Of a stretch of DNA of 64,000 bases, positions 1 through 31,813 are shown piece by piece. The notes below the pieces were generated by a model. The model saw only the letters and a list, made by a program, of their open reading frames with translations, had not been told where the DNA came from and did no database searches. Positions within the stretch are counted from its first letter, which is position 1. Every line of letters begins with the position of its first letter. The stretch spans positions 1,669,268 to 1,733,267 of the forward strand of contig OZ244620.1 in assembly GCA_965218395.1 (NCBI GenBank), given 5' to 3'. This stretch comes from an uncultured Candidatus Binatia bacterium (GTDB lineage: Bacteria; Desulfobacterota; Binatia; Bin18). The translations under genes and the position numbers were made by a program.

Positions 1-91
1 GTAAGGCATCGAGTTCGGCCAACAAGGCGTGGCCGCGTGCGCCACCGAGCAAATGCCGGGTATCAAACCACAGGTTGCGAACGGATGACAT
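1..91 (-). CDS. N-terminal fragment of an unidentified gene running off the left edge (MSSVRNLWFDTRHLLGGARGHALLAELDAL...)
   Basis: Reverse-strand ATG near position 91 with an open frame to the window edge; no convincing RBS and no recognisable family. Confidence 0.3.
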   Translation of the reverse strand, partial: MSSVRNLWFDTRHLLGGARGHALLAELDAL

Positions 92-94
92 GGA

Positions 95-173
95 GGGGAG
101 ATAGAGAGGGGAGATAGAGATGAGGAGTGAGGGGTCAATCCCCAGCCCCCAATCCCTAACCCCCAATCCCTAA
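95..173. repeat. two adjacent 2-copy tandem repeats (GGGGAGATAGAGA x2, CCCCCAATCCCTAA x2) in the intergenic region downstream of ilvE
   Basis: Read directly from the sequence at 95-120 and 146-173. Confidence 0.5.
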
Positions 174-179
174 TTTTCC

Positions 180-1094
180 TTATACATAGGTCAGCCAATC
201 CTGATACTTTGGATTGCTGCCCTTGATGACGGCATCGAAGCGGGCTTTGAGTTCTCGTGTCACCGCTCCGGGCGTTTCCCCACGGATCACCCGGTCGTCG
301 AGCTCGCGAATCGGCGTCACCTCTGCGGCCGTGCCGGTAAAAAAGACCTCGTCGGCAAGATACACCTCGTCCCGGGTGATCCGGTCCTCTTCCAGCGGGA
401 CGTCCATATCGCGCAGCAGGCTGAGGGCGGTATCGCGGGTAATACCGGGCAGGAGCGAAGACGAGAGCGGCGGCGTTTTGATCTTGCCCCGCCGGACGAC
501 AAAGATATTTTCTCCCGGTCCTTCGGCCACGTAGCCGTCGGTATCGAGCAGCAGGGCCTCGTCATAGCCCAGCGCCCAGACCTCCTGACCGGCAAGAATG
601 GAATTCAGGTAGGCGCCGACGGCCTTGGCCTTGGTCATCAGGGTATTGACGTGAAAGCGCTGAAACGACGAAGTCTTGACCCGAATGCCCTTGAGCAGCC
701 CTTCTTCGCCCAGATAGGCCCCCCAGGCCCAGGCCGCAATGGAAACGCGAATCGGGTTGGTCCGGGCGTGCAGGCCACGGTCTCCCTCGCCGACAAAGAC
801 CAGCGGACGGATATAGCATTCCTTGAGGGCGTTGGCCCGCACCGTTTCCAGGCAGGCCCGCATCACTTCGTCTTGGGAAAAGGGGATGGTGAGGCCGAGG
901 ATGTGGGCCGAGTCGAACAGCCGCTCGATGTGTTCGGGTAAGCGGAAAACGCCGGACCGACCGTCTTCACCCGCATAGCAGCGAATGCCTTCAAATACGC
1001 CCACACCGTAGTGGAGCGTATGGGTGAGGACATGGACTTTTGCCTCGTCCCAGGGAACGAGTTCACCGTCCATCCAGATTTTGCCGTTTTCCAC
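180..1094 (-). CDS. ilvE: branched-chain amino acid aminotransferase (class IV); start probably the GTG giving VENGKIWMDGELVPW, the upstream extension being non-coding
   Basis: ORF 180..1226. Motifs KIWMDGELVPWDEAKVHVLTHTLHYG, EGPGENIFVV and GITRDT are typical of IlvE; canonical IlvE proteins begin just before the KIWMDG motif. Confidence 0.85.
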   Translation of the reverse strand: MENGKIWMDGELVPWDEAKVHVLTHTLHYGVGVFEGIRCYAGEDGRSGVFRLPEHIERLFDSAHILGLTIPFSQDEVMRACLETVRANALKECYIRPLVFVGEGDRGLHARTNPIRVSIAAWAWGAYLGEEGLLKGIRVKTSSFQRFHVNTLMTKAKAVGAYLNSILAGQEVWALGYDEALLLDTDGYVAEGPGENIFVVRRGKIKTPPLSSSLLPGITRDTALSLLRDMDVPLEEDRITRDEVYLADEVFFTGTAAEVTPIRELDDRVIRGETPGAVTRELKARFDAVIKGSNPKYQDWLTYV

Positions 1095-1244
1095 AGAAAC
1101 CTCCTTGCAAAAAGAGGTTTTTTGCAAATCAGAAGCCCTGGGGAAAGTCAACGGGTGGGGAGTGCTGGGAGAGAGGTCGGGTGTCTTGTCTATGTCTATG
1201 GGAAAGCCTATATCTGCACAATACATCCAATATGCGGAGGAAAA

Positions 1245-1499
1245 ATGCGTACCGTCTCCTTTACAGAAGCGCGCAATGGACTGAAAAAGATTTTAGATCA
1301 AGCGATTAACGATGCTGACTGTACGGTGATAACCCGTCGGGACAGTGAGGATGCCGTCGTCATGTCTTTAGACTACTACAACAGTCTTATGGAAACGGTT
1401 CATCTGCTCAAATCTCCAGCTAACGCTGTCCATCTCAGCAAATCTATTGAACAGTTCCGCACCGGCCAAACCAAGGAGAGAGAACTGTTGGATGAGTAG
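1245..1499 (+). CDS. yefM: YefM/Phd-family type II antitoxin (84 aa)
   Basis: MRTVSFTEARNGLKKILDQAINDADCTVITRRDSEDAVVMSLDYYNSLMETVHLL is a typical Phd/YefM fold. GGAGG RBS lies 5 nt upstream; in frame with track ORF 1011..1499; overlaps the downstream toxin by 8 nt. Confidence 0.85.
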   Translation: MRTVSFTEARNGLKKILDQAINDADCTVITRRDSEDAVVMSLDYYNSLMETVHLLKSPANAVHLSKSIEQFRTGQTKERELLDE

Positions 1500-1754
1500 G
1501 AATCTGGCTTGGACCGACGCCGCCTGGTCCGATTATGTGTATTGGCAGGGCCAAGATAAAAAGACAGTAAACGCATTAATACGTTGATAACGAGTGTGCT
1601 CCGAACTCCGTTTGAAGGGATTGGAAAGCCGGAGGCGCTAAAGGAAAATCTCTCCGGGTTCTGGTCTCGGAGAATCGACGCGACACATCGGCTCGTTTAC
1701 GCCGTGACCGATACCCATGTGACGATCATTGCCTGCCGGTATCACTACGGTTGA
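1492..1754 (+). pseudogene. yoeB: YoeB/Txe-family toxin interrupted by a -1 frame break near 1580-1587
   Basis: Frame 1 reads MSRNLAWTDAAWSDYVYWQGQDKKTVNALIR then stops. The -1 frame continues ITSVLRTPFEGIGKPEALKENLSGFWSRRIDATHRLVYAVTDTHVTIIACRYHYG, which matches the YoeB consensus (RTPFEG, GKPE, LSGFWSRRI, HRLVY). Either an authentic inactivating frameshift or a sequencing indel. Confidence 0.65.
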
Positions 1755-1776
1755 GTCGGGAATACGGAAGAACAAA

Positions 1777-1842
1777 GGGCCGAATCGCCTAAAAAGGCAG
1801 CTCGGTGGGCATGAACTCTTCCCGGTCAAGGACGAGAGCGGT
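1777..1842. repeat. 66-bp direct repeat, copy A; a duplicated moeA 3' end (encodes TALVLDREEFMPTELPF* on the minus strand); left boundary of the islet
   Basis: 62 of 66 nt identical to 5427-5492, which is the genuine moeA C-terminus plus stop. Confidence 0.8.
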
Positions 1843-2285
1843 TATTCTTCGTCCTGGAGCCTGTCTTTCTTCGTTTGATGGCGGTCGTAGAGAAAGGCTC
1901 CGACGAGTGATCCGACACCAGTGCCCCCGAAGATCGTCCCAGAGATTGGATTTCCAAGGGAGACCAGTATGCCACCTATGGCTAGGGCCACTAACCCAAT
2001 ACTGAGTCCGAACGTTTGCCCGCGTTTACGTAAATCGTGTTCTTGCTTAGCCGCTTCATGAGCGAGGGCGATCTGCTCACGATCTAGAGATATCTCATGG
2101 CGGGTCTGTTCTTCTAGGAGCGTGAGAAAGCGTTCGGCTGCTCCTGGGAGAATCTCCTCCCAACGCTGAATCTCTGCGGCTGGCGGCAGCGGACCAGCAT
2201 AACTCACCGCACGGGCACGCTGCTCAACCTGTCCCTCACTATCGGATTGCGCTTGGGGAGCGCTTGCCGGCAGTTGGTCAGCCAT
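1842..2285 (-). CDS. DUF2335-like membrane protein (phage/island associated)
   Basis: ORF 1842..2363; start inferred at MADQLPASAP. The EEQTRHEISLDREQIALAHEAAKQEHDLRKRGQTFGLSIGLVALAIGGILVSLG pattern, followed by two TM segments, matches DUF2335 architecture. Confidence 0.55.
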   Translation of the reverse strand: MADQLPASAPQAQSDSEGQVEQRARAVSYAGPLPPAAEIQRWEEILPGAAERFLTLLEEQTRHEISLDREQIALAHEAAKQEHDLRKRGQTFGLSIGLVALAIGGILVSLGNPISGTIFGGTGVGSLVGAFLYDRHQTKKDRLQDEE

Positions 2286-2586
2286 CTGTGCCTGTCGAGA
2301 TATCTGGCATTTTGCTACGAATCGCGGAAGCGTTTTTCGATAGCTTATAGACGGCCCGCGCAAGTGGAGATTGCGTATTCCGTCCGATGGTTACTCGGTA
2401 TGGTTGAGGGAAAATCTGGACAGTAGAACCGATACCGGCAATTACGGTGCGTAAGCGTCCAGTCTGTATTGGTCTGAAAGAGACAATTTTCCCACGAGGA
2501 TAGAGGAGCTTTCTCTGTCCTTTTGTCGTGATTCCACTCCAGGCGCGCTCTGCCTTGGCTGCGCTCTTGTCGTGTCTCCGTTCCAT
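2278..2586 (-). CDS. hypothetical basic 102-aa protein, 2 nt upstream of the DUF2335 gene in the same orientation
   Basis: Track ORF only; the tight spacing suggests translational coupling. No homology recognised. Confidence 0.3.
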   Translation of the reverse strand: MERRHDKSAAKAERAWSGITTKGQRKLLYPRGKIVSFRPIQTGRLRTVIAGIGSTVQIFPQPYRVTIGRNTQSPLARAVYKLSKNASAIRSKMPDISTGTDG

Positions 2587-2669
2587 GACTTTTGCTATAC
2601 GCTGACGAACTGTGCCTGATAACCTTTACGTACCTCAAAGTGTGAAGAAACGCAAAAGATGGCACTGTC

Positions 2670-3146
2670 CTAATTCGGCCGTTCTTTTTGAAAATAGGAC
2701 GTGAGGGGGAGTTTATTGTTGCTCACATGCATTCTCCTGAACCGCAACATTTTCTCGGTCTCCTTGGAGGTGAGCGTATAGTAGTTGTCAATTGCGCGCT
2801 GAAGCATGTCCTTCGCCTCCTCCGCTGCGTCAAACTCGACGCTCTTCGACTGATTGGGAGACCCATGTTTTACTCTATTCTTCGCATTATTTGCCCGTGT
2901 GGCGACCCACTTTTCGGTAGTAGCTTCACCCCGCAGCCGTTCGGAGACTGCACGGACCGCTTTCTTGATTGTATCCAAAGCAGTCTCCTGGCCGTTTTCC
3001 TTAAGCAGCTTTCCTAGTATTTCCTCCGCAGCACCCGCCAACGTGATAACGGAGTAGTAACTCTTCTCTGCTTCAAAGTATAAGCGCAGGGCGGTTTCCA
3101 ATTGTTCGAGTGCCATATCCTCTATCTGATGATCCAAGGTTTTCAT
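2670..3146 (-). CDS. hypothetical protein (158 aa from MKTLDHQIED)
   Basis: ORF 2670..3251. Internal ATG preceded by an AAAGAGGGA RBS; lower-GC segment. Confidence 0.5.
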   Translation of the reverse strand: MKTLDHQIEDMALEQLETALRLYFEAEKSYYSVITLAGAAEEILGKLLKENGQETALDTIKKAVRAVSERLRGEATTEKWVATRANNAKNRVKHGSPNQSKSVEFDAAEEAKDMLQRAIDNYYTLTSKETEKMLRFRRMHVSNNKLPLTSYFQKERPN

Positions 3147-3413
3147 TAGGCTGCTTTCCCTCTTTGGATGATGCGGAGACACGGCAAGCTTTTCATTTTC
3201 CACTGTCTGAAACCAATACGGTGCAGATTTTATTTTCTGGACCCACCACACAAGAAGACATTGAGAAGGTCAAGTCACACTTGGATCTCTCGAAAGACTC
3301 CTTTCCGCTGCGATCCCAATTGTTCCAACCTTCCCCTGGGTCCGACAAATCGGACGGAGAGTAAGAATACTCTCCGTCGCCCGATCACGGCCGCAGATGT
3401 AGCTGTGCTTCGG

Positions 3414-3980
3414 CTACTTTTCACGACAGGCAGGTTCATTCACCCGCAAGTACTGGTCAATGAAGTAGTCAAAAGTTCCTGATACCTTTTCATAGAGCCG
3501 TTCGGCGCGAGCCCAGCCGTCATATCTCCAGGTATCGATGGTGCCAGAAAGTTCCGTGAGCGGATCAACCACTTTCTTGTGAAACGTAAAAGAGAATGTG
3601 GCGAAGCTGTGGTCGCTGGATAGCGGTTTATCTCCTACCATAAATCCAAGTTTAGATTCGATTAACGGATCAATCTTGATAGTAAGCCTACCATGAAGCG
3701 ACTTTGATTCTCGGTAGATACGGGCGGCACGTAGCCGCCTTTGTAGAGTAGTGTCAATACTTTTGTGTGATGGGTAAGCGCTATATCGCGACGAGATAAG
3801 GCTATTATCTACTGGGGAGGCATACAGTACAAACAAATCGACGGGCTGGCAATTATTCCAGAGTGAAAAACGCTCGGTTTTTTTCATTGCGTCTGCCGCA
3901 GTTGCAGGTATATCCTCATTTGCTGCCCACGCCTCTGCCACACAGCATATCCATAGCAAGAGCGCAATAACGACGCCCAT
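3414..3980 (-). CDS. secreted hypothetical protein with signal peptide MGVVIALLLWICCVAEAWA
   Basis: AGGAGG RBS 6 nt upstream; hydrophobic N-terminus with an AXA cleavage motif; 9 nt downstream of the preceding gene. Confidence 0.6.
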   Translation of the reverse strand: MGVVIALLLWICCVAEAWAANEDIPATAADAMKKTERFSLWNNCQPVDLFVLYASPVDNSLISSRYSAYPSHKSIDTTLQRRLRAARIYRESKSLHGRLTIKIDPLIESKLGFMVGDKPLSSDHSFATFSFTFHKKVVDPLTELSGTIDTWRYDGWARAERLYEKVSGTFDYFIDQYLRVNEPACREK

Positions 3981-3989
3981 GACGTCCTC

Positions 3990-5147
3990 CTACCGCCGTT
4001 TCGCTTTTTCTAGACGTTTGGCCGCACGGGCAGCGGCGCGGGCTTCCCGCTCCCGCGCCTCGCGGTTGACCTCTCGTTGCCGCGATTGGGGCGCTGGTTT
4101 TACCCCCATTTCCCGTTCAAAGTGAGTCCGTTCTCGTGCCTCACGAGTGATTACTGGTTGCCTTCCAGCACGATCAATGTACACCCGATACGAAAAGCTT
4201 TGTAATTTCCTACTCTGCATCGCCACGTTCCGAATGGTGACCTGATAGGGCGTGTCATACTCCCAGCCGCGCACACGCCAGCTTAGGAAGTTCGGCACTC
4301 CATTCCAGTCGGTATCCATATAGATATTGCTGACTGGCAAGCGCGCGCCGTCCGCAATACGAGCCACGGTGACCGTGGCGAGTTGAAAATACGGGTGTCG
4401 ATTGTTCCCCCGTTTGGTTTTGTCTTCGATAACGCTGAAGCTCCACGGTGGATCATCCTCCATGAAGACGGCGGGATATGTCCTATACGGGAAGGCCACA
4501 TAATCGACCGTAATCAGCGGGGTGATAGTCGGTTCATGATCGAAGTCAAAGACTTTCTGCACCGTATAACCATACACTTGCCCATAGCTCACATGCGTGG
4601 CAAAGGGATTGAGCACCCAGCGGCGATGCCCAGCCGCAGCTACCTCACTCCTGTTATGCGCGTCGTGCGTCCATCCGATCATCTCTTCGACTGGGTCGTT
4701 GTCTCGACCACGTCCACCTCTTCTTGATCGTGAGAGGTTGCTGCTCTCACTGGCTTCTCTCCCTGCGGTGGTGTAACACCGTGCGCTGGAGGATGGGTGG
4801 TGCCCTGGATAGCCGTTCGCCGCCTGAATCAGTGCCGCCTCTTGAACACTCCGGTCGTAGAGGTAGCTGTATCGCACGGGAGCGAGACCATGCAGCGCCC
4901 GAATCCGGTTCATGCCTGCCAGCGCTCGATCCTTCGCCTTCTGGGTCAGCGTGCCCGGTCTGCACGCGTTGACGTTGGGACGAGACGTATACAGGAAGTG
5001 CTCGCCGGCATAGGTTTTGGTTGCAATATCTCGTCTGACCTCATGCCAAAATGGAGTCGCCCACACGGGGAGAGAAAAGACTGTGTTGGCGAATACCGAA
5101 CAGAGGAGGAGGGCGGTGAAACCACGCAGAGCGGACCATGAGCGCAT
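3990..5147 (-). CDS. secreted CAP/SCP (PR-1-like) domain protein with a basic C-terminal tail
   Basis: ORF 3990..5249; start chosen at MRSWSALRGFTALLLCSVFANTVFSLPVWA (signal peptide). GMNRIRALHGLAPV ... GHRRWVLNPFATHVSYGQVYGYTVQKVF resembles the CAP-domain GHYTQ/GHRxN...VQxF motifs. C-terminal REAREREARAAARAAKRLEKAKRR. Confidence 0.5.
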   Translation of the reverse strand: MRSWSALRGFTALLLCSVFANTVFSLPVWATPFWHEVRRDIATKTYAGEHFLYTSRPNVNACRPGTLTQKAKDRALAGMNRIRALHGLAPVRYSYLYDRSVQEAALIQAANGYPGHHPSSSARCYTTAGREASESSNLSRSRRGGRGRDNDPVEEMIGWTHDAHNRSEVAAAGHRRWVLNPFATHVSYGQVYGYTVQKVFDFDHEPTITPLITVDYVAFPYRTYPAVFMEDDPPWSFSVIEDKTKRGNNRHPYFQLATVTVARIADGARLPVSNIYMDTDWNGVPNFLSWRVRGWEYDTPYQVTIRNVAMQSRKLQSFSYRVYIDRAGRQPVITREARERTHFEREMGVKPAPQSRQREVNREAREREARAAARAAKRLEKAKRR

Positions 5148-5426
5148 GAGCAGTGTTGGACCACCTGCAGGGATGACGGCCCCGCAGGTGGCACATATTC
5201 GAGTAGCCATAGGGGAGTTTCCCGGTAGTGTCAAATCGAAAACAGCCACTCTTCAGAACATGGTGATCCCATCCGGCACCCAAAGATATCCGGCCCGGGA
5301 AGTGACTCCCAGGCCGTTTCTTCTTATATCTTTTGGCACCTCGCACGGCAAGCGTCAGACCTCCCAACCTAGGACACTATTTTCTGAAACTCGGACACTC
5401 ACTGTCAAATTAGGACAGGACCGGCA

Positions 5427-5492
5427 GGGCCGAGTCGCCTAAAAGGGCAGTTCGGCGGGCATGAACTCTTCCCGGTCAAGGACGAGAGCGGT
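5427..5492. repeat. 66-bp direct repeat, copy B (authentic moeA 3' end); right boundary of the islet
   Basis: Matches 1777-1842; overlaps the moeA stop codon at 5439-5441. Confidence 0.8.
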
Positions 5493-6677
5493 CGCGGTGG
5501 TACCCTTGCGGAGCAGCGCCACCTCGGGCGGGCCGATCACCAGGCTCTCTCCAAGAGAGAGCGAACTCAGGACGCCGGAGCTTTGGGTGCCGGTTGAATG
5601 CGCCACATAGCCGGAGCCGTTCCGGGTCAACTGACAGCGGACGAATTCCGTCAGGCCCTGGGCCTTGGGAATGTCCTCACCCAGAGTGACCTGGACGGTC
5701 GGAAAGAAGAGCTTGCGGTAGCCGGCCATGCGACGCAGCGCGGCCCAGGTGTAGAGATAAAAACACACCAGGGCGGAGACCGGATTGCCGGGCAGACCAA
5801 AATACGGGCGTCCGCGGAGCAGGCCAAACGTCAGCGGCTTGCCCGGCCTTTGGGCGACCCGCCAGAACAGACGCTCAATGCCAATGTCGTCCATGGCCGC
5901 TTTGACAAAATCAAAATCCCCAACCGACACCCCACCCGTGGATAACACGACATCGTGCCGTACGGCCTCTTCGAGCGCGGCGCGCGTTTCTTCCAGGCTG
6001 TCGCGGGCAATGGCCAGGGGAACGGGCTGACCGCCGGCCTCACGCACGGCCGCGGCCAGGGTGTAGGCGTTGGAGTTCACGATCTGACCCGGTTGCAGCG
6101 GGATATCGACCTCGGCCAGCTCATTGCCCGTACTCAAGATGGCCACCCTAGGCTGCTGATGCACCAGCACAAAGCTGCGCCCGACCGAGGCCAGCAGACC
6201 GATGTCCGCCGGACGCAGGACCCGGCCCGACTTGAGAATCGTCTGGCCGGGTTGGATGTCTTCCCCACTCGCGCGAATATTATTGCCTTTGGGACCGGCC
6301 TGACGAATGAGCACCTGGCCGGCTTGTTCCTGGGTGTCTTCGACCTTGATGACGCTATCGGCGCCCGGCGGCAGGACGGCGCCGGTCATAATTTTACTCG
6401 CCGTCTTGGGTTCGACCGTTCTGGTTGGCACGGCACCGGCTTGAATGACTTCCAGGACCGACAGCACAACGGGCCGGTCGGCCCGGGCGGACTGAATATC
6501 GTCGTGCCGAACCGCATAGCCGTCCATGGCCGAGTTGGTGAACGGCGGCACTTTGCGGACGGACTCGACCCCCTCGGCCAGGACGCGTCCGGTGGCTTCA
6601 AACAGACCGATACGCTCACCGGCCAGCGGAGAGACGGTCTCCAGAATCTGGGTCAGAGCCTCATGCACGGAGATCAT
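5439..6677 (-). CDS. moeA: molybdopterin molybdenumtransferase MoeA
   Basis: ORF 5439..6695; MoeA N and C domains (GGVSVGDFDFVK, GLPGNPVSALV). Start chosen at MISVHEAL because GGAGGG lies 7 nt upstream and the longer N-terminal extension reads through a palindromic repeat. Confidence 0.85.
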   Translation of the reverse strand: MISVHEALTQILETVSPLAGERIGLFEATGRVLAEGVESVRKVPPFTNSAMDGYAVRHDDIQSARADRPVVLSVLEVIQAGAVPTRTVEPKTASKIMTGAVLPPGADSVIKVEDTQEQAGQVLIRQAGPKGNNIRASGEDIQPGQTILKSGRVLRPADIGLLASVGRSFVLVHQQPRVAILSTGNELAEVDIPLQPGQIVNSNAYTLAAAVREAGGQPVPLAIARDSLEETRAALEEAVRHDVVLSTGGVSVGDFDFVKAAMDDIGIERLFWRVAQRPGKPLTFGLLRGRPYFGLPGNPVSALVCFYLYTWAALRRMAGYRKLFFPTVQVTLGEDIPKAQGLTEFVRCQLTRNGSGYVAHSTGTQSSGVLSSLSLGESLVIGPPEVALLRKGTTATALVLDREEFMPAELPF

Positions 6678-6693
6678 ACGCATACCCTCCGAC

Positions 6694-6747
6694 AAAGAGT
6701 AAACGTGTCCGGCATCTCATGTCTATTGGAGGACACGTTTACTCTTT
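6694..6747. repeat. family-1 palindromic element, copy a (arms AAAGAGTAAACGTGTCC / GGACACGTTTACTCTTT, 20-nt loop GGCATCTCATGTCTATTGGA), between the purE stop and the moeA start
   Basis: Perfect 17-bp inverted arms read from the sequence; four related copies elsewhere. Confidence 0.7.
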
Positions 6748-6765
6748 CAAGTCCGTTTGAGCGCC

Positions 6766-7272
6766 TTACAACGCACCTGCCTTGACACGCTCCTGTAAGC
6801 GCCGGTCTTTGTCGCGTGTCTTTTCAACCAGTTCGGCTTTGAAGGCCTGAAACCGTTCTAGCAGACCGGCGTTGCTGGTTGCCAGGATTTGAATAGCCAG
6901 CAGACCGGCGTTGCGGGCGCCATCGATGGCGACGGTCGCTACCGGCACGCCGGCCGGCATCTGGACAATCGACAGGAGTGAGTCCTGTCCGTTTAGGGCC
7001 GCGCTTTTGATCGGCACGCCAATAACCGGCAGGGGGGTATGGCCGGCAACCACCCCCGCCAGATGGGCAGCGCCCCCGGCTCCGGCAATGATGACCTTGA
7101 GGCCCCGTTCGTGCGCCTGACTCGCATAGTCGGTGGCATCGTGCGGTGTCCGGTGGGCGGACAGGACGCGGATTTCATACCCAACCTCAAACTCCTCACA
7201 GACTTTGGCCGCTTGTTTCATCGTCTCGAGGTCTGAATCGCTGCCCATAACAATGCCGATCTGGGGGGTCAT
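6766..7272 (-). CDS. purE: N5-carboxyaminoimidazole ribonucleotide mutase PurE
   Basis: [33 protein letters not shown] and VIGVPI motifs. Confidence 0.9.
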
Positions 7273-8687
7273 GCTTCCTCCTTTTCATTCCGGTCAACGA
7301 GCGCTTCCAATATATACTCCAGATGCACCCCGCGGGAGCCTTTGACCAGCATGAGCTGCGGCCCGTCGGCCTGCCGCACCAGCGCCCGGACACACGGCGC
7401 GGCCGTGGTTGCGTCGGGGAAGACGTGGGCCGGGAGCCCGGCCTGAACTGCTGCCTCGGCAAGCTGCGGGGCGTACCGGCCAACCGTCACCAGAGCGTCC
7501 GGGGCGGGTTTGAGCCCGGCGACATAGGCCCCGATCTCTCGGTGCCGCAACTCGCCGACTACTCCCAATTCGAGCATATCGCCCAAGACGAGAATCAATC
7601 GCTCGCCGGCCTGCCGAATCGTATTGGCGGTCCGCAGCGCGTGCTGCACGGAGGCTGGATTCGCGTTATAGCAGTCGTCCAGCCCGGTGAGTTGATAGGC
7701 CGGCAGGCTGAACGGGGCGAGACGACGGGGGGCGCCCTGGGCGGTCCGCAGCGTTGCGCAGGCCGTCTCCAGGTCCAAACCGTTCTCCAGCACCGCGGCC
7801 ATGGTCGCGAGGGCCGCGGGGACGCAATGGGAGCCGATGAGCGGCAGTTGCACCTGTCGGCGCTGTCCCAGGGCGTGCAGCTCAAAACGCGTCCCCGTCC
7901 GCGACACCTGAATCTGCGCGGCCCGTACCTGATTGGGCGGCTGTTCACCGAATGTGACAATCCGGCACCGGGCCTGGCGCTGGACGGCGGCCAGCAGCAC
8001 GGGGTCGTCGCCATTGATAATGACCAGCCCGTCGGGCGGCAGGGCGGCGAGCAACTCGGTTTCGGCGGCCAGCACCCCGGCCAGGTCGCCGAGCGTCTCG
8101 GTGTGTTCTTCGCTAATGGTGGTAATGACACCAATATGAGGCTGCGCAAAGCGGCCCAGCGCGGTGAGTTCTCCGGGGCCGCTCGTCCCCATTTCCAGGA
8201 CCAGGAAGTCGTCCTCCGGCGCGGCGCATAGCAGGGTCAGCGGCAGGCCGATGTGATTATTCAGATTGCCCTGGGTCGCCCGGGTGGGGCGTTGGGCGCT
8301 AAAGACCTGGGCCATCAACTCTTTGGTCGTTGTTTTGCCGTTGCTGCCGGCAATGCCGATCACTCGCGCGGCAAGCCGCCGGCGGTGCCAGGTGGCGAGG
8401 TCTTGGAGGGCGCTCAGCGGATCGGCGACGGCGATCCCGGTGGCGCCGTCGGGCGGCTCGACCGGGAAAGACGCCGAAAAAAGAAAGCCGGCCGCGCCAC
8501 TCTCCACCGCCGCCGGGATATAGTGGTGGCCATCGACCCGCTCGCCGGCCAGCGGAACGAACAACGCCTGGGGCGCGATGTGGCGCGAATCAATGCCGAC
8601 CGAGGTAAAGAGCGTCTCCGGGCGACCCCACTTCAGGGTTCCTCCGGTGGCGGTACAGACGTCGTGCGCGCGCAGTGCAACTCCCAC
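7269..8687 (-). CDS. murF: UDP-N-acetylmuramoyl-tripeptide--D-alanyl-D-alanine ligase MurF (GTG start)
   Basis: [14 protein letters not shown]-loop; [10 protein letters not shown]...[15 protein letters not shown]; 4-nt overlap with purE. Confidence 0.85.
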
Positions 8688-8802
8688 AATGGGCCAACTC
8701 TATCGAGGCGGCCCAGGCGTCGCAAGCGTACAGGTCCAGCGGTTTCTCCGGGATACGCCGTGCTCCGTTGCTCTCCAGGGCGCGGCGTGTCACCATGCGC
8801 GT

Positions 8803-10131
8803 ATGGGCCAGCGGGAAGAACAGGCCAGGACGATTGTGCAGACGCTGCGCCGGCATGGCCATACGGCCTATTTTGCGGGTGGCTGTGTGCGGGATCGACT
8901 GCTGGGCAGGCAGGCTCAAGACTTCGATATCGCCACGGATGCCCGAACCGCCGAGGTCCGGGATATATTTCCGCAGACCATCCCGGTCGGGGCGCAGTTT
9001 GGGGTTATCCTCGTTGTCCTGGAGGGCATTCCCTACGAGGTGGCGACCTTTCGGGCCGATGGCCCCTATCATGATGGCCGTCACCCGGTGGCGGTCTGCT
9101 TCAGCACGGCCCGAGAGGACGCGCTGAGACGCGATTTCACGATTAACGGCATGTTCTTCGATCCGCTGACGGATACGGTCATTGATTATGTGGACGGGCA
9201 GGCAGACCTGAACAACCGGATCATTCGGGCCATTGGGGAGCCGGCGGCACGCTTTCACGAAGATCGCATCCGCCTGCTGCGGGCCGTCCGCTTTGCCGCC
9301 CGGCTGGGCTTCGCCATCGAGCCCGAGACCTGGCGCGCCGTGGGTCAGCTCGCCCCGACGCTGACCGAGATGGCCTGGGAGCGGATTGGCGACGAGGTGG
9401 TGAAAATCCTGACCGCAGGGAGCGCCCGGGTGGGGATGACGCTGCTGGCGGAGTCGGGCCTGCTGGAGGCCGTGCTGCCCGAGGTCATGGCGCTGCGCGG
9501 GGTGGCACAGTCGCCCGATTTTCATCCCGAAGGCGATGTGTTTGTGCATACGCTCCTGGTGCTGCACCATCTCGACGCTCTGGAGCAGCCGAGCGAGAGC
9601 CTGGCCCTGGGTGCGCTGCTGCACGACATCGCCAAACCGCTGTGTCAGAGGCAAAAAGGCGAGCGGGTGACATTTTACGGCCACTGCGAACAGGGCGCGG
9701 AGATGGCGCTGGACATCTGTCAGCGTCTGAAACGCTCTCGCGTGACCTGGGAGCGGGTAGCCTTTCTGGTCAAAAACCATCTACGCCTGCTTGACGCGCC
9801 GCGCATGCGAGCGGCCACGCTCAAGCGCTTCCTGCGTCTGGAGGGTATTGAAGAACTCCTGGACCTGGCGCGTCTGGATGCCCTGGCCTCAAACGGCAAT
9901 CTTGAGGCGTATGCATTCTGCCGCCAAAAACTGCTCGCACTCGACCCCGAGGAGCTGCGCCCGCCCCGTCTGTTGAGCGGTCGGGATCTGATCCAACTCG
10001 GATTGCAACCGGGTCCGCAGTTCTCCACCATCCTCGGGGCGCTGGAGGAAGCCCAACTCGAAGGGCGGGTACGCACCCGACGGGCGGCGCTCGCTTGGGT
10101 GCAGCGCAACTGGATGCAGCCGTCTGAGTAA
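8803..10131 (+). CDS. cca: CCA tRNA nucleotidyltransferase / poly(A) polymerase-family enzyme with HD domain
   Basis: ORF 8578..10131; start inferred at MGQREEQARTIVQ. GGCVRDRLLGR...DFDIAT NTase motif, RRDFTINGMF, HD-domain HDIAKP; divergent from murF. Confidence 0.75.
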   Translation: MGQREEQARTIVQTLRRHGHTAYFAGGCVRDRLLGRQAQDFDIATDARTAEVRDIFPQTIPVGAQFGVILVVLEGIPYEVATFRADGPYHDGRHPVAVCFSTAREDALRRDFTINGMFFDPLTDTVIDYVDGQADLNNRIIRAIGEPAARFHEDRIRLLRAVRFAARLGFAIEPETWRAVGQLAPTLTEMAWERIGDEVVKILTAGSARVGMTLLAESGLLEAVLPEVMALRGVAQSPDFHPEGDVFVHTLLVLHHLDALEQPSESLALGALLHDIAKPLCQRQKGERVTFYGHCEQGAEMALDICQRLKRSRVTWERVAFLVKNHLRLLDAPRMRAATLKRFLRLEGIEELLDLARLDALASNGNLEAYAFCRQKLLALDPEELRPPRLLSGRDLIQLGLQPGPQFSTILGALEEAQLEGRVRTRRAALAWVQRNWMQPSE

Positions 10132-10339
10132 GTAGGTCGGATGAGCGGAGCGTAATCCGACAAGGACGGGCTGTCGGGTTACGCCTACGGCTAGAGCAGT
10201 TTTCAGATTGGCGTAGCGGGCGGGCGGCGCTCCAGAACCGGAGGGTGCATCCCATGCACCAGCTTCCTGGTGCGCAGGGCACACCCTACGCGCCCCCGTT
10301 GTCTGAGGGCCGGCTGGCTATACGGAATCGTGAATTGGT
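10132..10339. repeat. REP/BIME-like block of GC-rich hairpins (TCGGATTACGCTCCGCTAATCCGA, GGTGCATGGGATGCACC) between the convergent cca and phoR genes
   Basis: Its end segments recur in inverted orientation at ~21610-21766. Confidence 0.5.
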
Positions 10340-11851
10340 CTAGTCCGACGGGGGAGGCGGGAGCGGCAGGGCGACCCGGACCGTGGTACCGTGATTGACC
10401 TTGCTCTCTATGCGGAGTGCGCCGTTATGGGCCAGGACGATATGTTTGACAATGGCCAGCCCCAGGCCGGTTCCCCCCAGCTCGCGTGAACGGGCTTTAT
10501 CCACCCGGTAAAAACGCTGGGTCAGACGTGGGATATCGGCTTCCGGGATACCACAGCCGGTATCGGCTATGGCAATCTCCAGCCAGCCCTGGGCGCCGTT
10601 GCCGGCGGCAACGGGAGCGCTGACCTCATGTGCCCCACGAGTGTGATCCGCCGCAGCGGCGCGCCCCCACCAGGCCGCTGGCTCGCCGCTGTCGTCACGC
10701 GCCGGGTGCAGTTCCGCGGAGACCGTGACCCGACCCTGAGCGGCCGTATATTTGACCGCGTTGTCAATCAGGTTGATCAGGACCTGATGCAGGCGATCCC
10801 GATCGCCTCTCACGCTGGGCAGGGCGGGCGGGAGATGCTGAGAGAGCGTCACCTTCCCCCGCTGGGCTTTCTCCTGGATCATGTCAAACGCTTCCTGGAC
10901 GAGCTCGGGAATATGGAGTTCTTTGCGGTGGAGCTCGGCCTGCCCCAATTCCAGATTGGATAGGGTCAGCAGGTCGTCTATGAGGCGGCTGAGGCGTTCC
11001 GAGTGGCGGTCAATAATGGTGAGGAAGCGGGTCGCGTGCTCGGGGTCGTGGAGGGCACCCGTGAGCAGGGTTTCCGCATAGCCCTTGATCGCGGTGAGCG
11101 GGGTGCGAAGTTCGTGCGACACATTGGCCACAAAGTCCGCCCGGATGGATTCGAGCCGTTTGATCGGGGTCAAATCATGACAGCTCAGCACATATCCGCT
11201 GGCCGTCGGGCGGCTTCCCTGAGGCGCTCCGTATTCTCCGCTGTGGGGCAGGCGCAAGACGCTCACGGCAAGCTGTCGCGGCTCCCGGCCCTCAACCTCG
11301 ATTTCCTGGGTGACGCCCTCAGCCGCTTCGGCGGACAAAAGCTGGTGCAGCACAGGGTGGCGGGAAAAGTCTTGGAAGGGCCGGCCCTGCCAGTCTTCCG
11401 TGGGGTCCAGACCAAACAGATGCAACGCGGCCGGGTTATAACGCACGATGCTGCCGTGCGGATCAATCACGACAATGCCTTCAGCCATGCTGTGGAGCAG
11501 GGCTTCGAGTTCTTTCTTCTCGTCCTGGAGCTGTCGAAGGTGTCGGTCTTGCGTGGTGAGGAGGCGGGAGAGCTGGTACTCGATGGTGCCCAGTACGTCG
11601 TTTTTGCGGACAGGCAGCGCGGGCAGCAGGGCGCCGTCCGGGGTCAGAGAAAGAAAGGCACTGAGCGCGCTCAGACGCCGTCGCAACTGTATCCGCTGAC
11701 GCAGCGCAGAGCCCAGCGCGGCCAGGCCACACACCAGGGCGGCATACCAGACCCAGTGCGGGCGGGCGTCTGCCGGAAAGAGCAGAAGGAGCAGGGCCAG
11801 CAGGGCCAGGCCGACCGGAAACAGAACGGCGAGGGTAATATTATCTTTCAC
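10340..11851 (-). CDS. phoR: phosphate-regulon sensor histidine kinase (PhoR-like; TM + PAS + HisKA HELRTPLTAIKGY + HATPase)
   Basis: Domain motifs; immediately downstream of phoB in the pst-pho operon. Confidence 0.8.
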   Translation of the reverse strand: MKDNITLAVLFPVGLALLALLLLLFPADARPHWVWYAALVCGLAALGSALRQRIQLRRRLSALSAFLSLTPDGALLPALPVRKNDVLGTIEYQLSRLLTTQDRHLRQLQDEKKELEALLHSMAEGIVVIDPHGSIVRYNPAALHLFGLDPTEDWQGRPFQDFSRHPVLHQLLSAEAAEGVTQEIEVEGREPRQLAVSVLRLPHSGEYGAPQGSRPTASGYVLSCHDLTPIKRLESIRADFVANVSHELRTPLTAIKGYAETLLTGALHDPEHATRFLTIIDRHSERLSRLIDDLLTLSNLELGQAELHRKELHIPELVQEAFDMIQEKAQRGKVTLSQHLPPALPSVRGDRDRLHQVLINLIDNAVKYTAAQGRVTVSAELHPARDDSGEPAAWWGRAAAADHTRGAHEVSAPVAAGNGAQGWLEIAIADTGCGIPEADIPRLTQRFYRVDKARSRELGGTGLGLAIVKHIVLAHNGALRIESKVNHGTTVRVALPLPPPPSD

Positions 11852-27944: not shown

Positions 27945-28628
27945 TCAGATATCCTGTTCGAGGATTTGGCCGTTATCCCTCAGCCAGCTTCGCGCCTTTT
28001 CCATCCTTGGCGCGTGCGTCCGAACGACATTCCAGAATCGGGGGGTATGATTTGCTTCGAGCAGATGGGCGAGTTCATGCACAATGACGTAATCGATCAC
28101 GAACATCGGCGCTTTGATCAGCCGCCAGTTCAGGTTCACGTTGTTCTTGACAGTGCATGAACCCCAGCGGAAACGATTGTCCACGATCTTCGCGCCGGCA
28201 AACTCCACCCCGAGCATAGCCGCAAGGGATTTTACCTTTGGAAGAATCCTCTCTCTCGCTCGGTTGACGTACCAGTTGCGAAGCACACTTCTTCGTTCGC
28301 CCGCCAGGGAAGCCGGGATCAAGAAACGCTGCCCGAAGCGTATCTCCGTCGAGTCGGTCGGGATGACTTCGACTTGGTACTCGCGGCCAAGGTAGAGCGC
28401 GGATTCGCCGTTTACCAGCTCCTTGCCGGGCGGATGGGGCCGCTCTGCGTACTTCTGGGTATGCTTCGTCTTCTCATAAATCCACTGACGTTTTGACTCG
28501 ACAGCTTCCCGAATCGTCTCTTCAGGGGTGGACTCGGGGGCATGAACGACCACGCTACGGTCCCGCTCGACGGTGATCGTCAGCTTCTTACGTTTCGGTG
28601 AGCGTTTGATTGTGTAGGCCGTGTCCAT
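27945..28628 (-). CDS. M48-family (YgjP-like/DUF45) zinc metallopeptidase associated with Type I RM
   Basis: HELAHL zincin motif; 2 nt downstream of hsdR. Confidence 0.8.
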   Translation of the reverse strand: MDTAYTIKRSPKRKKLTITVERDRSVVVHAPESTPEETIREAVESKRQWIYEKTKHTQKYAERPHPPGKELVNGESALYLGREYQVEVIPTDSTEIRFGQRFLIPASLAGERRSVLRNWYVNRARERILPKVKSLAAMLGVEFAGAKIVDNRFRWGSCTVKNNVNLNWRLIKAPMFVIDYVIVHELAHLLEANHTPRFWNVVRTHAPRMEKARSWLRDNGQILEQDI

Positions 28629-28630
28629 GC

Positions 28631-31600
28631 TTACTCCGCGTAGAGAATGATGTCATGGTTCTTTTCCGCGATCTCCATCACACGGCTGATTATTTGGGCA
28701 TGCTTGTTCACAAGGTTCGGGAGCGCTACGAACGACGGCTGGAGAAGCGTCTTCTGAATCTCGGCTCTTAGTTTGTTGCGCGCTGGAATACTTTCCCAAA
28801 ATCCGACCAGCTTCAACTCTCGCTCGACCACCAGTGAGACCCCCTGCGTCAGCGCGACCAAGTGGCTGATTTTGTCGTCCTCGCTCAAGCCGTAACGCGG
28901 ACTCGTTTCCGCTACCCTCAATTCGTCAGCGTCCTTGACCATGTCCGCACCAAACAGCTCGCGTCGAAACATGCGAAAGAACGGCATCTGCCTTTTCCTG
29001 TGGAGGCCATAGGTTGGTTCCTTGCTGGAATTGATGATCCTTGTTCGTAGCTTCTCCAGCTCTTCGTAAATCCTTTTCCAGTTATCCTGGAACTCTTGCA
29101 ATATCTGCGCGAGTGCTTCCGCGAAGGACGCTTGCAAGTCCGGGTCGTCACCCAACTCAACGTCGAGGTGGTGGCGGATAGCGTGTTCTACTTCTGCCGC
29201 TTTTGTCTTTGTGCGGCTGCGCTGATCGACGTTCTTTTGGAAGTCCTCGTCCAGAATGGAAATCGGTTTGACCTTCTGGGCTATGCTCTTTGACTCCAGA
29301 TATTTGTCTGTGATGGCGCGTAGCTTCGGCGGGATGCCCTTCATGCTGAGGCGTTCATCCCGGAAGTGCTTGCCGGCGAGGATGTTGATTTCAGAAAGAG
29401 CATTGTAATCGTCCATAAACTCCAATGCCTGCCGCGCGGGGAAAACGAGGTTCAGGCACTTGGTCAACTTCTTGAACGCCTGCATGTAGTCAAAGCGCAG
29501 GTCCTCGTCGTAGAGCACATCAAAAAAAGCGTCATGGTCCGTCAGGTCTGTCAGGCCATGCTGCTCAAGCAAGGCTATAATCGCAGCATGGCTGTCCTTG
29601 AGGTTGCGCAGTTCTTCTTCGGGAAAGCTGAGGGTGTCAATGACTTCCTTTTGTTCTCGCTCGTCATAAACGTCGATGGCTTTCTTGAGATGATGCCCAA
29701 CGCCGACGTAATCAACCACGAAGCCTTTGTCCTTCGTGTCGCCTCCAACCCGATTCACCCGAGCAATGGCCTGCAATAGGTTGTGGTCGGTGATGACTCT
29801 ATCCAAATACATGACCTGCTCCACCGGAGCGTCGAAACCCGTGATGAGCATATTGTTGACGACGAGGATGCCCATGTCTCCGCTCACGCCTTCGTCTTCA
29901 CCCCCGAACACCATTTTGAAGCTCTTGATACTGCGTCCGTGCTTGGTCTGGTCAGCGTACTCCTTTAAGTGCGGCAGATCGTTGTGTCCGCCGGAGATCA
30001 CGACATCGGTTTGCAGCTTCTTTAGCTGTTCTAGGTCGAGGCCGGGCGGGTTTGGTTTTTCCAACTCGGCAACGGCTGCACCCAGGGCAGTGTCGAGGTG
30101 CTTCTTGTAACGGATCGCCGCCTCGCGCGATGTAGCCACCACCTGGGCCTTGTAGCCGTTCGGAAATACATGGGTCAGGTAGTGCCTGACCATATCCTTG
30201 GCCTTGGCTTGAATCGTGGGTTCTGCCTCCAGGTAGGCGTCTCGGGAGCCGTAGCCAAGGATTTGAAGTCTTTGCTGGAGGTCGTAGTCGCTGAATACAT
30301 CCGCAAACGCCGCATCCATGCCTCCCTGGTCGGGTATTTCTGCGTTGTGGGTGCGGCCTTCGTAGACGATCTCCAGGGTAACGCCATCGTCTATGGACTG
30401 CCGCATGGTGTACTTGTCGATGTAGTCGCCAAAGACGCGCTCGGTCTTGTCAATCGGCGTGCCGGTGTAGCCGATCTTTGCGGCGTTCGGGATGCCCCTA
30501 TCGAGATTCGCTCCGAGCATCTTGTATTGGGAGCGATGGGCCTCGTCCGTCATAACCAGGATATGTGGGCTGGCATTAAGCTGTGGGAAGGTTTCGGTCA
30601 GGTCCGGGTCGCGGAATTTGTGGATCATGGCCATGACCAGGTCCGAGGTGTCGGCCCGAAGCAGTTCCTTCAGCTCGCGGATGCTGTTGGCCGTCTTCAC
30701 GGGAAACCCGATGCTTTGGCTGGTCTCGCTCAACTGGTCTTCGAGCTGTGTCCGGTCGGTGACGAAGACCACTTTCCAGCGTGCCAATTGTGCGTGTCGG
30801 TACATTTCACGCACCATGAACATCATGGTCAGCGATTTGCCCGAGCCCTGGGTGTGCCAGATGATGCCGCTCCGTTCGCGCGGGTTCCCGCCCTCCAGCA
30901 ATCGCTTGACCGCGAGTTTGACCGCCCGGAACTGCTGATAGCGCCCCACAATCTTGATGGTCTGGCCTCTGTCGTTGGTCGAAAACAGGGTGAACGTCCG
31001 CATGAGATCAAGCAGGTTATCCTTATCCATCATCCCGGCGACCAAGCGCTGCTGGTCGTTCGGGCTGCCAGCGCCATGATCGAGGTCATTGACCGTTCGC
31101 GGATAGGGGTCGGCCCAGCGGTAAAAATACTTTTCACTCCGCGTGGTGATCGTCCCGAACTTGGCCTCCTGGCGACAGGTGGCGACCACAAACTGATTGA
31201 AATAAAAGAGCGGTGGGCTTCCTTCGCCTGTGACACCACGTTGCTCGCCGTAGCGCAGCATCTGGTCAATGGCCTCGGGGATGGCGTCCTTCACCTTGGG
31301 CGACTTGCATTCAATCAGGACCACGGGCAGGCCATTCACGAACAACACAACGTCCGGGATGATGTGGTGCTCGGTGCCCAGGATGCGGACCTTGAATTGG
31401 CACACGGCAATAAAGTGGTTTTTGTCGCGGTTCTTGAAGTCGATAAAGTGCACAGTCGGGCTCTTCTCGCCCGTCTGTCGGTTCTCACTGACGCTGGTGT
31501 TCTCCAGAAGCAGATGAAGGATGTGCTTGTTGTTCTCGATCAATCCGGTGCCGGGGAAATTCGTGATGAGTTGCCTGACGACTTCTTCGACCTGGTCGTC

Positions 31601-31813
31601 TGCCAGCCACGGATTGATGACTGTGAGCTGTTCTCGCAGTACCGGCAGCATGACGACTTCGGTAAAGTTCTCTCGAAACGTATCAGCGGGCTTCTGCTGC
31701 TTGTCGGTCAGGTCGATGATCTCCCAGCCCAGACCGTGCAACTGCTCAAGGAGGGGTATCTCGACGTGGTTACGTTCGTCCATGCGAAGGGACTGCGCCC
31801 TCATAGTCATCAC
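28631..31813 (-). CDS. hsdR: Type I restriction enzyme R subunit HsdR
   Basis: 1,060 aa; helicase motifs (GSGKSLTM, DEAH box VMTDEAHRSQ), characteristic N-terminal nuclease and C-terminal domains. Confidence 0.9.
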   Translation of the reverse strand: MMTMRAQSLRMDERNHVEIPLLEQLHGLGWEIIDLTDKQQKPADTFRENFTEVVMLPVLREQLTVINPWLADDQVEEVVRQLITNFPGTGLIENNKHILHLLLENTSVSENRQTGEKSPTVHFIDFKNRDKNHFIAVCQFKVRILGTEHHIIPDVVLFVNGLPVVLIECKSPKVKDAIPEAIDQMLRYGEQRGVTGEGSPPLFYFNQFVVATCRQEAKFGTITTRSEKYFYRWADPYPRTVNDLDHGAGSPNDQQRLVAGMMDKDNLLDLMRTFTLFSTNDRGQTIKIVGRYQQFRAVKLAVKRLLEGGNPRERSGIIWHTQGSGKSLTMMFMVREMYRHAQLARWKVVFVTDRTQLEDQLSETSQSIGFPVKTANSIRELKELLRADTSDLVMAMIHKFRDPDLTETFPQLNASPHILVMTDEAHRSQYKMLGANLDRGIPNAAKIGYTGTPIDKTERVFGDYIDKYTMRQSIDDGVTLEIVYEGRTHNAEIPDQGGMDAAFADVFSDYDLQQRLQILGYGSRDAYLEAEPTIQAKAKDMVRHYLTHVFPNGYKAQVVATSREAAIRYKKHLDTALGAAVAELEKPNPPGLDLEQLKKLQTDVVISGGHNDLPHLKEYADQTKHGRSIKSFKMVFGGEDEGVSGDMGILVVNNMLITGFDAPVEQVMYLDRVITDHNLLQAIARVNRVGGDTKDKGFVVDYVGVGHHLKKAIDVYDEREQKEVIDTLSFPEEELRNLKDSHAAIIALLEQHGLTDLTDHDAFFDVLYDEDLRFDYMQAFKKLTKCLNLVFPARQALEFMDDYNALSEINILAGKHFRDERLSMKGIPPKLRAITDKYLESKSIAQKVKPISILDEDFQKNVDQRSRTKTKAAEVEHAIRHHLDVELGDDPDLQASFAEALAQILQEFQDNWKRIYEELEKLRTRIINSSKEPTYGLHRKRQMPFFRMFRRELFGADMVKDADELRVAETSPRYGLSEDDKISHLVALTQGVSLVVERELKLVGFWESIPARNKLRAEIQKTLLQPSFVALPNLVNKHAQIISRVMEIAEKNHDIILYAE

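Follow-up and report, generated by a model that had tools for sequence, protein, structure and literature searches.

One of the questions raised by the moeA-ilvE region of an uncultured bacterium, placed by its MoeA relatives as a Candidatus Binatia bacterium, is how the 3' end of a housekeeping gene came to stand on both sides of a block of lower-GC DNA, and whether an integrase is needed to explain it. The region lies in a stretch of 64,000 nt, called here the window, in which an islet bounded by a direct repeat of the moeA end separates moeA from the toxin-antitoxin (TA) pair yefM-yoeB and from ilvE. Based on about 45 distinct copies of the locus, across species and strains, we arrive at an answer that we hold with a confidence just above even: the moeA-ilvE spacer would be a recombination hotspot that works without integrases, and the window would carry two of its alleles, an A-type and a TA-type, fused by homology-driven recombination. 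The parts of the locus on which the argument depends are the following.

180..1094, minus strand: ilvE, class IV aminotransferase (Pfam Aminotran_4, E = 1.5e-54), a core gene and the right border of the hotspot
1095..1160, no strand assigned: conserved ilvE promoter/leader block (its reverse complement contains CCACCCGTTGACTTTCCCCAGGGCTTCTGATTTGCAAAAA), the end point of all hotspot inserts
1245..1499, plus strand: yefM antitoxin (Pfam PhdYeFM_antitox, PF02604, E = 7.5e-21)
1492..1754, plus strand: yoeB toxin, broken (Pfam YoeB_toxin, PF06769, E = 1.7e-27, C-terminal part)
1776..1842, minus strand: orphan (distal) moeA 3' end, 17 codons, TAG and 13 nt, contiguous with yoeB
1843..2660, minus strand: module A, orf102 and a DUF2335/phrog_3996 membrane protein, 90% identical to L020 across its length
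2661..5422, minus strand: module B, a cassette with terminal inverted repeats that holds orf158, sp188 and a CAP-domain gene
5426..5492, minus strand: proximal repeat copy, the functional moeA 3' end and 13 nt; the flank to ~16 nt past the stop matches an A-type allele
5439..6677, minus strand: moeA, molybdopterin molybdotransferase, 412 amino acids (Pfam MoeA_N, MoCF_biosynth and MoeA_C), the left border of the hotspot
5493..6030, minus strand: moeA 3' half, hyper-variable among conspecific strains (comparison with L052, L064 and L065)

The direct repeat described in an earlier note on this DNA is real, with small corrections: it is 67 nt long and not 66, with 63 of 67 positions identical between 1776-1842 and 5426-5492 (start-to-start spacing 3650 nt), and it codes for 17 residues and not 16. 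The right copy is, as that note had it, the genuine moeA C-terminus with its stop, the final 17 codons encoding TALVLDREEFMPAELPF followed by TAG and 13 nt; the left copy encodes TALVLDREEFMPTELPF and a stop, with one Ala/Thr change relative to the right copy. The leading 36 nt, in moeA orientation, are the same in both copies and are found nowhere else in the 64 kb window; 100 shuffles never produced this 36-mer. The 67-nt repeat is unique within the window and is not a dispersed repeat. More degenerate copies of the moeA end were sought at the border between modules B and A and at that between the TA pair and ilvE, and none rose above the shuffle background. The lower GC content of the segment was also confirmed: the islet (1843-5425, 3583 nt) has 53.1% GC, against 63.7% in moeA, 60.5% in ilvE and 67.3% in murF (60-67% over the flanking genes ilvE, moeA, purE and murF), and GC at third codon positions is 0.48-0.62 in the islet genes and 0.69-0.79 in the flanking ones. 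Yet the repeat does not delimit the low-GC zone, which extends to yefM-yoeB (49.6% GC) beyond it.

The window proteins were placed on 39 Binatia species loci and the junctions were then read, and strain-level alleles were added by exact-protein look-ups. At least seven different states were found between moeA and ilvE. In 15 species the two genes are neighbours and the site is empty, with ilvE following moeA after 84-86 bp. TA-only alleles (moeA-yoeB-yefM-ilvE) are found in L010 and L017 at the species level, in L073, and at the strain level in L065, which comes from the same sample as the islet strains (ERZ25067264 of the European Nucleotide Archive, ENA), and in L062, a short-read assembly of another sample. 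The YefM and IlvE proteins of L065 and L062 are identical to those of the window, and these two alleles and L010 hold a single copy of the repeat. Alleles with a deleted yoeB occur in L064 and L068; in these two and in L011, yoeB is wholly deleted and yefM is kept but 3'-truncated. A-only alleles with the 147-residue DUF2335 protein are those of L069-L072, L077 and L078; L020 carries only a segment equal to window 1843-2660, and in L012 module A is interrupted by an IS630-like remnant. Other cargo consists of three unrelated open reading frames (ORFs) in L014 and a 109-nt insert in L018. Every insert, the window's being the largest among these copies, runs from 13-20 nt past the moeA stop to the same conserved ilvE promoter block, which lies directly upstream of ilvE at every locus regardless of the insert; a search of JGI metagenomes with the ilvE-promoter pattern returned four loci and no new allele.

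These alleles establish the segment as a genuine insertion polymorphism, as the earlier note had supposed: the contiguous ilvE-moeA site that it proposed to look for exists in the 15 species, and the TA-only sites, among them the strains L065 and L062, carry one copy of the 67-mer. That note also placed a yefM-yoeB module directly outside the left repeat, where both Pfam families indeed match; this pair is an alternative occupant of the same hotspot.

Can a site-specific integrase account for such a pattern? In that explanation, which is that of the earlier note and the main rival, and which we consider doubtful, the moeA 3' end is the attachment site attB, and modules B and A form a remnant without integrase, or a cis-mobilisable element, moved by a tyrosine or serine recombinase that acted in trans or has since been lost; the replacement moeA end would have been brought as attL, and the original left as attR beside yefM-yoeB. 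The repeat, which covers the gene's 3' end, its stop and 13 nt and leaves moeA intact, fits this well, as do the precise empty sites and the DUF2335 gene, which comes from a phage-associated family. What is missing is the recombinase. No recombinase or integrase gene, and no larger element, was found at any of the ~45 locus copies; the islet ORFs, in which the earlier note had seen no integrase either, the Pfam tables of at least 20 related contigs and the L012 and L014 inserts contain no Pfam match to a recombinase, and a literature search for integrases that target moeA returned nothing relevant. There is no positive evidence for a recombinase in trans. Neither module A nor the 67-mer was found outside the moeA-ilvE locus, and scans of JGI metagenomes and IMG/VR for relatives of module A came back empty. 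A Tn7-like element, which is recognized by tnsABC/tniQ-type genes, TG...CA termini and a 5-bp target duplication, does not fit either, as such genes are absent from the islet, the module B inverted repeat extends past TGT and there is no 5-bp duplication.

What each copy of the repeat joins gives a different picture. At the distal copy, the sequence passes directly into yoeB, as it does after the true moeA end of TA-only alleles, and L010 aligns colinearly with window 1034-1842 (91% identity). The sequence that follows the proximal copy is GCGACTCGGCCCTGCC, in agreement with the A-only flank at 13 of 16 positions. The repeat ends at the exact point where TA-type and A-type alleles diverge; on its other side, the distal copy directly adjoins the DUF2335 stop codon. 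Since two alleles appear to be joined here in tandem, we read the 67-bp repeat as most likely a displacement seam and not the att site of an integrase of the islet's own.

The A-type half of this tandem has a history that can be traced in other genomes. Module A consists of two overlapping genes:

1842-2285, minus strand: DUF2335 membrane protein, 147 amino acids (phrog_3996, E = 3e-25)
2278-2586, minus strand: orf102, which overlaps the DUF2335 gene

The DUF2335 membrane protein had been named in the earlier note; its Pfam score of 23.7 bits is just under the cut-off of 25, its homologues carry PF10097, and the phrog_3996 match secures the assignment. The orf102 frame is intact in six of eight complete copies despite 8-13% nucleotide divergence. 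Module A stands alone, with no full repeat, in eight other alleles, and is an old resident of the moeA-ilvE site in other genomes. In a simple midpoint-rooted neighbour-joining tree of 816 nt, which ignores recombination, the window and L052, a second strain with the islet, are nested within the A-only lineages, with L069 as sister at 8.3% divergence and L077 as outgroup at 20%. Every other member of the tree has a short right flank, in which the DUF2335 stop is followed by ~40 nt and then by the ilvE promoter; because the window's module A is nested among such lineages, the full orphan copy with the TA pair is the derived state. The islet is also not one unit, because module A resides elsewhere with no full repeat and module B, as described below, is a separate inverted-repeat cassette. 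The proposal of the earlier note, a single island integrated by a site-specific integrase and later degraded, is therefore not supported: there is no integrase at the ~45 copies, the two modules have separate histories, the full repeat and TA pair are derived within A-only lineages, each repeat copy is colinear with a different chromosomal allele, and the TA pair beyond the repeat is one more occupant of the hotspot. The same facts count against an integrase with a lost or distant source, in which A-only alleles with no orphan moeA end beyond 15 nt would be hard to accept as ancestors of the window form.

Those 15 nt require a closer look. All A alleles share the joint between module A and its right flank directly after the DUF2335 stop codon, and the first 15 nt of the A-only flank can be compared with moeA positions -54 to -40. 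L072 matches at 13/15 and L078 at 12/15, both at a fixed offset from the stop and with 9 consecutive nt identical to C7-type moeA alleles, and the others at 5-8/15, including 7/15 in L069, the closest relative. Beyond this patch the A-only flank has no significant likeness to the rest of moeA or to the TA right junction; shuffle tests of the flank are significant for L072 alone (2/1000), driven by the first 15 nt. If a site-specific recombinase was at work, L072 and L078 could have kept the core of attR in this patch after module A. A variant of that idea is that the arrival of module A itself made the full repeat, and that the A-only lineages later lost most of the distal copy, together with yefM-yoeB, by deletion. 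The joint shared by all A alleles and the 12-13 of 15 nt kept in L072 and L078 would agree with such an ancient attR. We regard it as improbable, since the window's module A is nested within short-flank A-only lineages that include the 20%-divergent L077, the A-only sequence past the patch is unlike the rest of moeA and the TA right junction, and the distal copy is still 94% identical to the functional one despite a selection-free time that would match the divergence of module A (8-20%).

Two further candidates concerning this flank were tried and rejected. The joint between module A and the orphan was considered as an illegitimate joint specific to the window that truncates DUF2335, given that the L020 frame reads on for 24 codons; other A-only alleles stop at the same codon as the window, and L020 has a 4-nt deletion at the DUF2335 end. 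The A-only right flanks were also considered as decayed full copies of the moeA end, and an nhmmer profile of that end found just the window, L052 and L011. We also observed GACCTCTCTC at the TA right junction (window 1161-1177, upstream of the ilvE promoter block) and after the DUF2335 stop in L072 (3857-3870); both sites resemble moeA GCGACCGCTCTCG, and are too short and too CT-rich to interpret.

Based on these alleles, the fusion of an A-type and a TA-type allele may have taken the following course. Homologous recombination in the core genes on either side would swap alleles of the spacer. The A-type parent would have consisted of moeA, its ~16 nt flank, the orf102-DUF2335 pair and module B, and the TA-type parent of moeA, yoeB, yefM and ilvE. 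As a simple double homologous exchange cannot make a tandem, an extra short-homology or illegitimate joint is needed here. One of the two exchanges would use the extended homology of moeA or ilvE. The second would use short homology and would fall just past the DUF2335 stop, where A-type alleles have the 15-nt patch that resembles moeA codons -17 to -13. The incoming allele would in this way come to lie beside the resident one, whose own moeA 3' end would be shifted downstream and survive there as an orphan, with yefM-yoeB still attached. The same product could arise by single-crossover (Campbell-type) integration of a circularised A-type fragment. RecA-dependent deletion between the repeat copies would restore the TA-only allele, the copies would still interact by gene conversion, and the function of the cargo would be irrelevant to insertion.

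An independent orphan moeA end exists in L011. Between its two copies (11270-11452) lie a 38-nt remnant of the yoeB 3' part, which is the flank of a TA allele, and two hairpins that resemble repetitive extragenic palindromic (REP) elements, with no cargo of an element; the junction of the second copy with yefM is the very one seen in L064 and L068, where yoeB is deleted. The hairpins are inverted, with GTAGGTCGGGTTAGCCGTAGGCGTAACCCGAC in one and a partner ending in CCTAC; the tetranucleotides GTAG and CTAC are typical of REP elements. Judged by these junctions, L011 reads as a tandem of two chromosomal alleles and not as a cargo element. For an integrase, L011 can be read in two ways: its orphan starts within ~6 nt of where the window's does, as an att site would have it, and yet the DNA between its copies is the flank of a chromosomal allele.

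Several points weigh against the fusion of two alleles by recombination. A repeat over a gene's 3' end and stop codon is the classical look of attL and attR made by an integrase. The donor, a moeA-B-A-ilvE allele without the TA pair, was not found among the locus copies examined, and either allele may have been the donor. The 15-nt patch is well kept in just two A-only lineages and could be either chance or a relic of an att core, and the tree that gives the derived state is of the simple kind described above. Moreover, the orphan copies start at -54 of moeA in the window and at about -48 in L011; random illegitimate joints would not be expected to fall so close together, which hints that one site is preferred. 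A bolder idea is that the moeA 3' end, around codons -17 to -13, is the preferred attachment point of an as yet unrecognised recombination system that acts in trans and stacks cassettes downstream of moeA. Such a system would explain two orphan copies that start within ~6 nt of each other; we find it quite unlikely.

Signs of recombination are also seen in the core gene that borders the spacer. Among the window, L052, L064 and L065, which are four conspecific strains, the moeA 3' half (5493-6030) is 95.9-96.7% identical between the window and the others, and the moeA 5' half, purE, murF and ilvE are ~99% identical. The differences in the 3' half are clustered, mosaic and different for every strain pair; the window has 17 private single-nucleotide polymorphisms (SNPs) in 5451-5961, where all four strains differ mutually. 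This variability points to recombination tracts that abut the hotspot. The two islet strains, the window and L052, differ by ~2.3% in the moeA 3' half and module B and by ~0.4% in module A and the TA pair, which suggests that the former tract was later replaced from a diverged allele with the same layout. At repeat position 18 both copies have C in the window and both have T in L052, so the two copies seem to evolve in concert.

Another explanation that should be weighed is that the assembler strung an A-type and a TA-type haplotype together and that the tandem is an artefact. TA-only and islet-bearing contigs do occur together in sample ERZ25067264, and so does L067, an evident mixed-haplotype consensus. 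However, the same junctions appear in three separately assembled contigs. L051, from that sample, matches the window at 99.65% identity along 16.7 kb, has the same architecture and shows zero differences from window 42-6822 except one indel; L052, the second strain from the sample, is 98.3% identical over the region (1.7% diverged, 79 SNPs) and has both junctions the same. A joint at the 15-nt patch, and not at the shared flanks of an assembly bubble, is also far too short to mislead an assembler. Because a near-identical contig and a diverged strain share the junctions, an artefact is very unlikely, to the point where we give it hardly any credence; the proteins of the islet are also on record in a 5.0 Mb NCBI/ENA contig. 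L067 itself, a 20x long-read contig, holds at 3118-3620 a garbled mix of module A fragments, the joint between module A and the orphan, and two copies of the moeA end, at 70-86% identity. It was considered as an intermediate allele and rejected as a garbled consensus of co-occurring haplotypes.

A separate observation concerns the region beyond moeA: 55 of the 57 SNPs between the window and L051 are clustered in 6823-10796, in purE-murF-cca (1.4% divergence), with almost none in the other 12.7 kb, and this cluster looks like a recent recombination tract. The single indel between them is in yoeB, where one A is missing from an A-run near 1569. The broken yoeB next to the left repeat, as reported in the earlier note, is a 1-nt deletion; in L051, L052 and L065, three other assemblies of the same species, yoeB is intact with 87 amino acids. 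The frameshift may be either very recent or a homopolymer or assembly error of long reads.

If module A is an old resident of the site, where does module B come from? It is absent from all other moeA-ilvE locus copies examined, and its genes are the following.

2670..3146, minus strand: orf158, hypothetical, a called gene in L051
3414..3980, minus strand: sp188, hypothetical, with a signal-peptide-like N-terminus and one other homologue cluster (P0151)
3990..5147, minus strand: CAP/SCP-domain protein, 385 amino acids (Pfam CAP, 25.2 bits against a cut-off of 21.1)

The cassette is bounded by terminal inverted repeats of 17 bp, 14/17 matching with an exact 11-mer core, which read GGCACTGTCCTAATTCG at 2661-2677 and GGTCCTGTCCTAATTTG at 5406-5422 on the reverse strand. 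The borders of module B were set independently, from the start of A-only homology and the end of moeA-flank-like sequence, and they coincide with these repeats. Three phased copies of TGTCCKAGKTT, 20-21 nt apart, mark the moeA-proximal end, the two further ones being at 5386-5397 and 5365-5376; four sites of this motif were observed against 0.17 expected, and the end pattern is GGYACTGTCCTAATTCG followed by sub-terminal GTCCTAGTTT repeats. Beside the proximal copy of the moeA end these phased repeats could be taken for the arm-type sites of an integrase. They belong, rather, to the ends of module B and recur away from moeA: the sole other homologue cluster of sp188 among 5.8 billion protein clusters, P0151 (63% identity), lies on the unrelated marine TARA contig L081, inside a 794-bp unit (L081 3995-4800) with an 18-bp inverted repeat (17/18), and both sub-terminal regions of this unit are homologous to the ends of module B. 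In L081 a 6-bp GAGGAG target duplication abuts both repeats, and in the window there is none (AAAGAT vs GGCAGG). Modules A and B have separate histories, and the ends of B are its own and common to this unrelated contig, which counts against an integrase that carried both as one unit. The cargo gene is oriented oppositely relative to the cassette ends in the two contigs.

The family members found are the window lineage, L081 and two solo ends. The latter, of a 'D-type' (GGATACTGTCCTAATTCGGCAGTT...TTTTCAAAG), lie in the cca-murF spacer of L021 (6001-6054) and L069 (1538-1590) with no partner end nearby; this spacer is itself variable, with extra genes in L069-L071 and L077 and none in the window. 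The inverted-repeat 14-mer gave 88 single matches in IMG/VR, none with extended similarity and thus due to chance, and no plasmid match; no autonomous partner with a transposase was found among the IMG/VR and plasmid matches. Judged by its ends, module B appears to belong to a rare family of non-autonomous cassettes with inverted repeats at their borders. This family is the most original element of the study, and rests on two complete copies. That it is a new family that ferries secreted-protein genes between distant bacteria, here this Binatia lineage and the source of a marine contig, is in our opinion a long shot.

The cargo of the islet is predicted to be a secreted CAP/SCP protein, a rare signal-peptide-like protein, a small helical protein and a phage-family membrane protein with a conserved small ORF, signal peptides having been assessed by eye alone. 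The CAP/SCP-like assignment of the earlier note is upheld by the Pfam score, above its cut-off; the protein has a C-terminal beta-rich domain and a basic tail, its AlphaFold2 (AF2) model (pLDDT, a per-residue confidence score, of 59.6) was too poor for a fold search, and a promoter-like site within the proximal end of module B faces its gene. It has 199 homologues, the closest outside the species (66-78% identity) being at ybeY-lnt in related Binatia, and is the sole gene common to the islet and those loci. The ybeY-lnt spacer of L053-L058 holds a CAP-domain gene with a small downstream ORF, and L058 adds a Phd/PIN toxin-antitoxin pair; here too, a CAP gene and a TA module share a small spacer of variable content. 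The product of orf158 is probably cytoplasmic and helical, and has no Pfam match above cut-off and no PHROG, NCBIfam or PADLOC match. PADLOC and NCBIfam gave no matches on the cargo, with no sign of a defence system, and no significant result came from Rfam scans, terminator scans or hairpin folding of the module B ends. When the two islet strains are compared, sp188 is the most variable gene, with 25 SNPs in 390 nt at 3558-3947 (95% amino-acid identity), and the CAP gene has 12 SNPs within 37 nt at 4266-4302. These clusters, far above the 0.4% of module A, point to local recombination or diversifying selection.

Elsewhere in the window, a second lower-GC block (27945-36614, 50-57% GC) stands beside tRNA-Asn (37154-37229). 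It encodes a type I restriction-modification system, with HsdR at 28631-31813, HsdS at 32683-33933 and HsdM at 33930-36614, and a YgjP-like metallopeptidase; no integrase was found among its scanned ORFs.

The locus offers a clean case, in the uncultured phylum Binatota, of a small hotspot between housekeeping genes that would gain and stack cargo with no integrase, with both putative parental allele types and the fused product in one metagenome sample. It also calls for caution, as integrase action is not proved by the mere presence of a direct repeat in which the 3' end of a gene is duplicated. By-products are a catalogue of alleles, a spare moeA end that appears to be still exchanging sequence with the functional gene, and a rare cassette family.

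How does this compare with known systems? The TA pair itself is an ordinary yefM-yoeB type II toxin-antitoxin system, with both Pfam families in the usual order of antitoxin and toxin and an 8-nt overlap; its yoeB is broken in the window and deleted in L064, L068 and L011. Islands at gene 3' ends and cis-mobilisable elements (CIMEs), such as those related to ICESt1/3 of Streptococcus thermophilus, which are flanked by att sites and lack recombination genes, resemble the islet in that the repeats hold the target's 3' end, the gene is regenerated, the GC content is lower and the cargo includes a phage-family gene. They differ from it in that no element with a cognate integrase is seen at the site among the relatives examined, the islet is not one unit and the form with the repeat is derived. 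Module B resembles mobile insertion cassettes and cargo-carrying elements like miniature inverted-repeat transposable elements (PMC3913671): passenger genes lie between inverted repeats, a transposase is lacking and L081 has its 6-bp target duplication. It differs by having two complete members and two solo ends, no duplication in the window and asymmetric ends.

Displacement that leaves orphan 3' ends has been described in effector-immunity arrays of type VI secretion systems (T6SS) and attributed to homology-facilitated illegitimate recombination (Kirchberger et al., 2017; PMC5361080), and also as Rhs C-terminal displacement (Jackson et al., 2009, as cited in PMC5361080). As in those arrays, DNA anchored in a conserved upstream gene would push the old 3' end and its downstream partner along and leave the orphan in tandem, and in both cases the mechanism is deduced. 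In contrast to them, the duplicated gene is the housekeeping moeA and not a polymorphic toxin, the orphan has 54 nt of coding sequence, and the partner kept is a toxin-antitoxin pair and not an immunity gene. The spacer as a whole is like the gene-turnover hotspots without mobile-element genes in which homologous recombination in the core genes at their borders creates diversity (Oliveira et al., 2017; PMC5635113): the core flanks moeA and ilvE are fixed, the content varies among species and strains, most alleles have no integrase or transposase, and diversity in the flanking core gene is raised and mosaic. The difference is that one allele here is a tandem of two others with a duplicated gene end. 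Taken with these systems, the window allele may best be described as one more allele of an integrase-free hotspot, in which a gene end was displaced and left as an orphan, a kind of arrangement that is well documented and would not surprise a specialist.

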